This document shows positions 50,501 through 50,757 of a DNA stretch of 64,000 nt, in pieces (the stretch's first letter is position 1; each line of letters opens with the position of its first letter). This DNA comes from Escherichia coli (GTDB lineage Bacteria; Pseudomonadota; Gammaproteobacteria; Enterobacterales; Enterobacteriaceae). Made by a program: the position numbers. The DNA lies in NCBI RefSeq assembly GCF_051903065.1, contig NZ_CP178438.1, one strand, 5' to 3'.

Positions 50501-50757
50501 TGACGACTATTATTCAGGGCGGCACGTCTTCAGTCACCGCGCTGACCGGCTCCACTGAAGAATCGCAGTTCTAAGCAACCTACAAACGTTGCTGACTGTA
50601 GGCCGGATAAGGCATTTACGCCGCATCCGGCAATCGGTGCACGATGCCTGATGCGACGCTTGCGCGTCTTATCATGCCTACAACCGTTGCCGAACGTAGG
50701 CTGGATAAGGCGTTTACGCCGCATCCGGCAATTCTCTGCTCCTGATGAGGGCGCTAA

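Follow-up and report, generated by a model that had tools for sequence, protein, structure and literature searches.

A BIME-2 of three palindromic units between aceA and aceK of Escherichia coli, a likely RNA barrier at the end of the aceBA message

Between the glyoxylate-shunt genes aceA and aceK of Escherichia coli lies a short spacer filled with palindromic repeats. We analyse this spacer in a stretch of 64,000 nucleotides (nt), hereafter the window (NCBI RefSeq assembly GCF_051903065.1, contig NZ_CP178438.1). The gene order along the window is rrnB … rrnE, yjaB, metA, aceB, aceA, aceK, espL4/arpA, iclR, metH, yjbB, pepE, and the sorbose genes. The aceA stop codon TAA occupies 50572-50574 and the aceK ATG lies at 50758, leaving a spacer of exactly 183 nt (50575-50757). 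The element within it is a bacterial interspersed mosaic element of class 2 (BIME-2): three E. coli repetitive extragenic palindromes (REPs) of types Y, Z2, and Y, in alternating orientation and joined by standard short linkers. We consider it likely that this BIME-2 serves as an RNA hairpin barrier that sets the stable end of the aceBA mRNA and as a site for DNA gyrase, and that it is a dispensable, fast-evolving element.

REPs, or palindromic units (PUs), are defined as imperfect palindromes of types y, z1, and z2; a BIME-2 consists of alternating y and z2 units with the short S linker, arranged in tandem and variable in copy number among strains (PMC3333891). Further hallmarks of REPs are an internal mismatch in the hairpin, a conserved foot tetranucleotide (GTAG, or CTAC where the copy is inverted), placement outside genes, and many copies in each genome; for BIMEs-2, gyrase binding and cleavage is another. 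Units were called by scanning for the head and tail motifs of Y, Z1, and Z2 units and counting mismatches. Unit 1 (50598-50631, minus strand, type Y) reads GTAG followed by GCCGGATAAGGCATTTACGCCGCATCCGGC on the mRNA strand, has its body at 50602-50631, and matches the head and tail motifs with 0 mismatches; its predicted hairpin has an energy of -19.1 kcal/mol (z = -3.9). A 14-nt head-to-head linker, the S motif AATCGGTGCACGAT (50632-50645), read directly from the sequence and aligned with the linker of the naRNA4 model discussed below, connects it to unit 2 (50646-50681, plus strand, type Z2). This second unit reads GCCTGATGCGACGCTTGCGCGTCTTATCATGC followed by CTAC, with its body at 50646-50677, 0 head mismatches, 1 tail mismatch, and a hairpin of -14.8 kcal/mol (z = -3.3). 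The 14-nt tail-to-tail linker AACCGTTGCCGAAC (50682-50695), delimited by sequence, direct repeat, and allele comparison, leads to unit 3 (50696-50729, minus strand, type Y), which reads GTAG followed by GCTGGATAAGGCGTTTACGCCGCATCCGGC, has its body at 50700-50729, shows 0 and 1 mismatches, and folds at -18.7 kcal/mol (z = -3.5). The foot tetranucleotides are GTAG at 50598-601 and 50696-699 and CTAC at 50678-681. All three units are imperfect palindromes of 34-36 nt, within the 30-40 nt of the definition, and form hairpins with internal loops.

On the aceA side, the left flank on the plus strand (50579-50597, AAACGTTGCTGACT) consists of a CCTAC tail remnant (50579-83) and a linker of the tail-to-tail type, and it marks the edge of a 98-nt repeat. 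The same linker recurs between units of a 4-unit E. coli allele. Together with GCAAC (50575-79), the left flank is predicted to fold into a small hairpin immediately 3' of the aceA stop. An earlier note on this DNA, made from the sequence alone, had placed at least four units of alternating orientation in the spacer. The alternating palindromes and the strings that it quoted are present; the complete units number three, and the supposed fourth is the CCTAC tail with its linker at 50579-50597.

Several observations bear on the identity of the element. A 56-nt direct repeat (50579-50634 and 50677-50732) has 89% identity and a period of 98 nt. Where 0.54 copies of the 13-nt PU head motif GCCKGATGCGRCG would be expected, the window has 6, a count that none of 100 shuffles reaches, and all seven palindromic units found by the motif scan lie outside genes. 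The Rfam family naRNA4 (RF02564) matches 50601-50678 with 81.8 bits against a gathering score of 59.5 (E = 5.6e-13, model positions 1-77), a match that covers units 1 and 2; the 77 positions of its consensus correspond, over their full length, to the Y–linker–Z2 pair, and unit 3 gives a partial match (E = 6e-4). As RNA, the whole spacer folds at -95 kcal/mol (z = -5.3). As a megablast query, the spacer repeat has 122,301 matching places in total, with a median of 20 for each E. coli genome. The counterpart in strain K-12 is catalogued as 'BIMEs2 aceA>-aceK>' (PMC6379681). The earlier identification as REP/BIME thus agrees with every defining feature that could be tested: comparison with the REP consensus gives 0-1 mismatches per motif in the three spacer units, and the stable hairpins of -14.8 to -19.1 kcal/mol run counter to the outcome, units without consensus or hairpins, that would have spoken against it.

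The number of units at this site varies widely, as a comparison of copy number across strains, proposed in the earlier note, makes clear. Nine fetched E. coli alleles carry 0, 1, 2, 3, 4, 5, or 7 units. Across 39 E. coli chromosomes, spaced evenly along the megablast ranking, with classes deduced from match span and confirmed on the nine fetched loci, these classes hold roughly 5, 1, 4, 8, 3, 17, and 1 genomes; the three-unit state is common in this sample but less frequent than the five-unit state. In the unit-less allele, the spacer measures 48 nt and contains a small, unrelated hairpin, and the Shine-Dalgarno sequence is better. On the side of aceK, the alleles with 2 and 4 units close with a chimeric Z2/Y unit, evidence of recombination between units. 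The largest array seen at the site belongs to E. albertii NBRC 107761, where 11 units of the E. coli type, regularly arrayed as Y and Z2, occupy a 542-nt spacer. In our model, the element would be dispensable and would evolve rapidly by gain and loss of whole units, as expected of repeats that are spread and rearranged by a REP-associated transposase and by recombination between units.

In K-12, the aceA–aceK BIME-2 occupies the identical locus and has the same units (Y, Z2, Y) and the same two kinds of linker, S and tail-to-tail; one base of the tail-to-tail linker is the sole difference between the strains in the stretch that runs from this linker past unit 3 to the aceK start. The window differs in having retained other members of the five-unit array. 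Its unit 1 loop is GGCATTTAC where K-12 has GGCGTTCAC, and its left flank is CCTACAAACG where K-12 has AACAACAACCG. These allelic differences are minor.

As a separate observation, the start of aceK (GGCGCTAAATGCCGCGTGGCCTGG, 50750-50775) is similar to the interior of a Y unit (GGCGTTTACGCCGCATCCGG, 50608-50632). The coding part of this segment (ATGCCGCGTGGCCTGGAA) is found in all nine fetched E. coli alleles, allowing up to 3 mismatches, and since these include the unit-less allele, the resemblance is probably coincidental.

The identity of the element is plain; what it does we infer from its anatomy together with published data for K-12. A map of RNA 3' ends in K-12 places a terminus at 4218573, in the class 'alternative primary in TU' (transcription unit) (PMC10687069). 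When this entry of the supplementary table is mapped onto the window, the terminus falls at 50735 on the plus strand, 6 nt beyond the foot of unit 3 (50730-50735) and 23 nt before the aceK ATG. The local sequence is the same in the window and in K-12; the two agree at every position between unit 3's GTAG and the aceK ATG, both included, an interval that contains the aceK Shine-Dalgarno sequence GAGGG (50747-51). An RNA end so close behind the last unit fits a role in the protection of 3' ends.

The second component of the picture lies inside aceK. A hairpin at 51096-51117 on the plus strand is followed by a U run to 51125 and resembles an intrinsic terminator (z = -3.75); it is identical to that of K-12, where it coincides with the 3' end of the small RNA AceK-int (K-12 annotation; PMC10687069). 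The window counterpart of AceK-int, 51041-51125 within aceK, is likewise identical to K-12. Only two sites with a hairpin and a U run were found, both inside aceK (51042-57 and 51096-117), and the latter is the stronger. No hairpin with a terminator-like U run was found in the spacer (50575-50757); the notion that the spacer repeats are themselves an intrinsic terminator was rejected because no U run follows them. Premature termination has been observed within aceK (PMC5435950). A passage of the same paper cites a product ratio of 0.3:1:0.003 and puts it down to premature termination in aceK (PMC5435950). The hairpin at 51096-51125 is probably the site of the premature termination that lowers AceK.

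We propose, as the simplest model, that these features work together as follows. In the aceBAK mRNA, each unit would fold into a stable GC-rich hairpin. Most transcripts would stop early, at the intrinsic terminator about 340-370 nt into aceK, and 3'-to-5' exonucleases would then presumably trim the RNA back until halted by the REP hairpins. The outcome would be a stable aceBA message that ends 6 nt past the last unit and that helps to hold aceA far above aceK. Accounts of REP hairpins as barriers to 3' exonucleases in operons, reportedly given by Newbury, Higgins, and colleagues in 1987 for malE–malF and hisJ–hisQ, provide a close parallel. As in those operons, the repeats are intercistronic and follow a gene whose expression greatly exceeds that of the next; here, an RNA 3' end lies just past the last hairpin. 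The difference is that in aceBAK the truncation would be supplied by a terminator internal to aceK.

The element may also act at the level of DNA. In a Topo-seq study of a K-12 derivative, the 131-base-pair (bp) orthologous element contains 8 gyrase cleavage sites with ciprofloxacin (Cfx), 2 with rifampicin plus ciprofloxacin (Rif+Cfx), 0 with microcin, and 2 with oxolinic acid; the BIME-2 between sucB and sucC, one of two BIMEs-2 that the authors highlight for multiple cleavage sites, has 6 ciprofloxacin sites, and the gyrase signal at cleavage sites internal to REPs tends to increase after rifampicin (PMC6379681). From these K-12 data, the element in the window would be a strong, transcription-independent site of gyrase binding and cleavage.

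The same spacer can be followed into other genera. A single DNA-pattern scan of species-representative genomes of Enterobacterales and relatives yielded 120 aceK loci, and in 108 species the spacer reaches 40 nt or more. Structure in these spacers is strong (median z = -3.3, with 71% of values below -2) and is built from unrelated families of palindromic repeats, which counts in favor of the RNA role. A Y-like unit accompanies a GCCCGGTGGCGC…CCGGGCCTAC unit in Salmonella, Citrobacter, and Kluyvera; nested CCCTC…GAGGG palindromes occur in Enterobacter, Pluralibacter, and Buttiauxella. Nested palindromes of the forms CCCTCACCC…CCCTCTCCCC and GGGGAGAGGG…GGGTGAGGG, a different repeat family, fill spacers in Enterobacter, Kluyvera, Pluralibacter, and Buttiauxella; these nested palindromes resemble the E. 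coli 'boxC' repeats. Serratia has other palindromes at this position and Hafnia a terminator-like hairpin, and the unit-less E. coli allele also retains a hairpin.

Some points weigh against a hairpin barrier and gyrase site with a role in the operon. The 3'-end and gyrase data were obtained in K-12 derivatives, which share the three units of the spacer but differ in its 5' flank and in unit 1. The RNA 3' end could stem from termination or from endonuclease processing instead of the arrest of an exonuclease. About one in eight sampled E. coli genomes has no repeats in the spacer, so that any role is non-essential. For the 108 spacers, z derives from mononucleotide shuffles and the species are not independent of one another, and the conserved structure could just reflect a spacer that tolerates palindromic repeats.

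The alternative that survives best is that the element is a neutral or selfish repeat: its non-autonomous units would be spread by a REP-associated tyrosine transposase, amplified and deleted by recombination, and tolerated within an intra-operon spacer with no role in ace expression. The range from 0 to 7 units within E. coli and the 11 of E. albertii speak for this, as do the chimeric Z2/Y units with their signature of recombination, and the fact that the window and K-12, with three units each, have kept different members of the five-unit array. BIME cleavage and recombination by the transposase, with variable copy number, are also documented (PMC3333891). On the other side stand the K-12 RNA 3' end and the cluster of gyrase cleavage sites at the element, which are molecular consequences and not fitness effects, and the independent retention of a strong hairpin at the same place in unrelated genera, which in itself demonstrates no effect on fitness either. 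With respect to fitness, this explanation is viable given that unit-less alleles exist; as a full account of the element we regard it as possible, though not probable.

Translational masking is less easily sustained. Here the last Y unit would pair with the region of the aceK Shine-Dalgarno sequence and AUG (GGCGUUUACGCC with GGCGCUAAAUGCC) and hide the ribosome site, resulting in low AceK and downstream polarity; the idea is said to have been raised by Klumpp et al. in 1988, with the first sequencing of aceK. In minimum-energy folds of the 1-, 3-, 5-, and 7-unit alleles, GGCGCUAAAUGCC, which includes part of the Shine-Dalgarno sequence and the AUG, does pair with the last Y unit, on its inner half, and the site has a mean unpaired probability of 0.18-0.31 in these alleles versus 0.48-0.55 in the 0-, 2-, and 4-unit alleles. 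The energy required to open positions -15 to +5, however, is high in all alleles (range 8.8-13.8 kcal/mol): the window needs 8.8 kcal/mol and the allele with 0 units 9.6 kcal/mol, and the energy follows a single base in a unit loop and not the number of units. The masking pairing must also compete with the unit's own hairpin of -19 kcal/mol, which forms earlier in transcription. Since the unit-less allele is as occluded as that of the window, occlusion is not specific to REPs, and we consider masking by the repeat unlikely. A related candidate, control of ribosome-site occlusion by an odd or even number of units, was suggested by the unpaired probabilities and rejected on the opening energies.

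Distinctly unlikely, in our estimate, is a transcription attenuator, in which the BIME itself would halt RNA polymerase between aceA and aceK, either with Rho or as a weak terminator. The RNA 3' end 6 nt beyond unit 3 is what such an attenuator would produce, and BIME-associated attenuation was reportedly described by Espéli et al. in 2001. Against it, the only hairpins with a U run lie within aceK and none in the spacer; transcription goes on into aceK, as AceK-int is made from that RNA; and the premature termination of PMC5435950 is placed within aceK. Very improbable is the last alternative, that the locus is a source of an naRNA4-like nucleoid-associated non-coding RNA acting with HU in chromosome condensation: the Rfam model does match above its gathering score, but its consensus aligns over its whole length with the Y–linker–Z2 pair, with sub-threshold matches at other PU sites too, so that the match indicates membership in the repeat family and not RNA production by this copy.

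The low expression of aceK is better explained by the internal terminator together with limited access to the ribosome site; a more probable role for the repeats is that of a barrier that fixes the stable 3' end of aceBA. In the earlier note, an influence of REP stem-loops on polarity and on the low relative expression of aceK was given as known, which overstates the case: termination maps inside aceK, alleles without units exist, and the window allele is predicted to occlude its ribosome site no more than the unit-less allele does. A search of the open literature for aceK together with REP or stem-loop found no paper testing the REPs of this operon.

A different route by which a REP may affect expression concerns the upstream gene. 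According to the summary given in PMC12306157, Liang, Rudd, and Deutscher (2015) found that a REP within 15 nt of a stop codon down-regulates translation of the upstream gene. Unit 1 likewise lies downstream of a stop codon, but its GTAG (50598) begins 23 nt and its stem (50602) 27 nt past that of aceA. At 23-27 nt versus the 15-nt limit as summarized there, stop-proximal repression of aceA was rejected on distance, and this mechanism is not expected here.

The structure in other genera invites a broader proposal, that the spacer is under selection for a strong hairpin 'valve', with any palindromic repeat family able to fill the role, and that the variation from 0 to 11 units within Escherichia constitutes a heritable rheostat. 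If true, unit number would set the AceA:AceK ratio, and with it the set-point of isocitrate dehydrogenase phosphorylation and acetate behavior, and/or the local supercoiling at the gyrase site. The cross-genus structure fits either selection for a hairpin here or a repeat-tolerant spacer and does not separate the two; we offer the rheostat as a speculation that is rather improbable.

Beyond aceBAK, the earlier note had pointed to repeat units at 62302-62390, at about 63200-63300, and at 44340-44362. The first of these is a BIME-like pair on the minus strand between the convergent genes yjbB and pepE (62314-62383): a Z2 unit at 62314-62350, with 0 + 0 mismatches, and a short hairpin GCCGGATCATGCATCCGGC at 62365-62383. 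It scores 46 bits with naRNA4, below threshold (E = 1.5e-5), and its minus-strand fold has an energy of -40 kcal/mol (z = -6.8). The K-12 pepE mRNA 3' end in the map of PMC10687069 falls at the foot of this Z2 unit, a parallel to the end behind unit 3 that likewise favors a barrier role. In E. coli FDAARGOS_1280, the loop of the same unit, intact in the window, is occupied by the insertion sequence (IS) IS1397.

The second site, upstream of pepE (63205-63301, no strand assigned), is a probable BIME-1; this class is defined as a single pair, one z1 and one y unit on either side of a long, conserved L linker, in which a site for integration host factor (IHF) is often present (PMC3333891). It comprises a Z1 unit on the plus strand (63205-33, 2 mismatches), a 35-nt linker with TGCAATATATTGAATTT, and a Y unit on the minus strand (63269-63301, 1 mismatch). 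The order Z1, 35-nt linker with its TGCAATATATTGAATTT core, and Y is that of the BIME-1/RIP (repetitive IHF-binding palindromic) element; the linker would correspond to the L consensus. Unlike that element, both units here are degenerate and fold weakly, with z of -0.4 and -0.9 on the plus strand and -1.2 and -2.3 on the minus strand; the repeat that had been noticed is real and decayed.

At the third site, between rrfE and yjaB, the repeat sequence is also real, yet 44349-62 is just the left half of a unit. The plus strand reads the half-unit GCCGGATGCGACGC (44349-44362) with a first copy of TGG (to 44365), then an insertion sequence at 44366-45797, then a second TGG and the right half of the unit, CGCGTTTTATCCAGCTTAC (45798-45819). 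A strain with an empty site carries the uninterrupted unit GCCGGATGCGACGCTGGCGCGTTTTATCCAGCTTAC. The flanks, GCCGGATGCGACGC-TGG-[IS]-TGG-CGCGTTTTATCCAGCTTAC, and the empty site together show that the element has inserted into a palindromic unit, at its loop, and has duplicated 3 bp of the target (TGG), the opposite of the earlier proposal that it had inserted next to a REP and not within it.

The insertion sequence is IS1397, a 1432-bp member of the IS3 family with terminal inverted repeats TGAAC…GTTCA and a transposase on the minus strand. RefSeq annotates an IS1397-family transposase in the near-identical strain ECNB21-M121. Among the matches listed, 14 of 15 full-length copies carry the label 'IS3-like element IS1397 family transposase, programmed frameshift' and the remaining one 'IS3 family transposase'. 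The earlier note had named the element IS150; RefSeq names IS1397, and of the 1432 nt of the element, megablast aligns just 65 with K-12, which carries IS150. That match is a solitary, unannotated remnant, 95% identical to the first 65 nt of the element (window plus strand), present in K-12 and in many genomes with no full copy. Full-length copies at 97-100% identity occur in 1707 of 5426 complete E. coli genomes. All seven other IS1397 copies examined, from seven genomes and five distinct loci, lie in PU loops with 3-4-bp duplications, one of them in the yjbB–pepE unit of this region. IS1397 is described as targeting palindromic units in Clément et al. (1999) and Wilde et al. (2001, 2003), as cited in PMC1525189. 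The published element resembles that of the window in its length of 1432 bp, its frameshifted two-part transposase, and its insertion into PU loops with a 3-bp duplication, and nothing notable differs. With the insertion in FDAARGOS_1280, two of the four REP sites in the earlier note are IS1397 targets in some strain.

In the surrounding region (44291-45840), the lineage of the window lacks yjaA, which K-12 has between rrfE and yjaB; in its place are a short terminator hairpin (44308-44330) and one palindromic unit, the one split here by IS1397. The arrangement without yjaA and with an intact unit occurs in 2820 of the 5426 complete genomes, about half. The window and ECNB21-M121 share 99.9% identity across the 28 kb compared, apart from one additional 768-bp insertion in the window. 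This is an IS1 at 54003-54770, which disrupts espL4/arpA, has no counterpart in ECNB21-M121, and is flanked by a 9-bp target duplication, ACTAGCCCG, at 53994-54002 and 54771-54779. Elsewhere in the window, Rfam matches above threshold are 'Pseudomonas sRNA P26' at 12084-12145, near the rpl/rpo region, and StyR-44 at 41061-41169, upstream of the rrnE 23S rRNA gene.

The BIME-2 of the aceA–aceK spacer is real, ordinary, and already known from K-12: REP and BIME elements are textbook features of E. coli, and the preference of IS1397 for such units has been published. The value of the analysis is mainly corrective, in that the spacer has three units, IS1397 lies within a unit, and the drop in aceK is better put down to an internal terminator and the ribosome site. 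The polymorphic number of units, from 0 to 7 in E. coli and 11 in E. albertii, together with unrelated repeat families in other genera, provides a natural allele series for studying the effects of REPs on operon stoichiometry.

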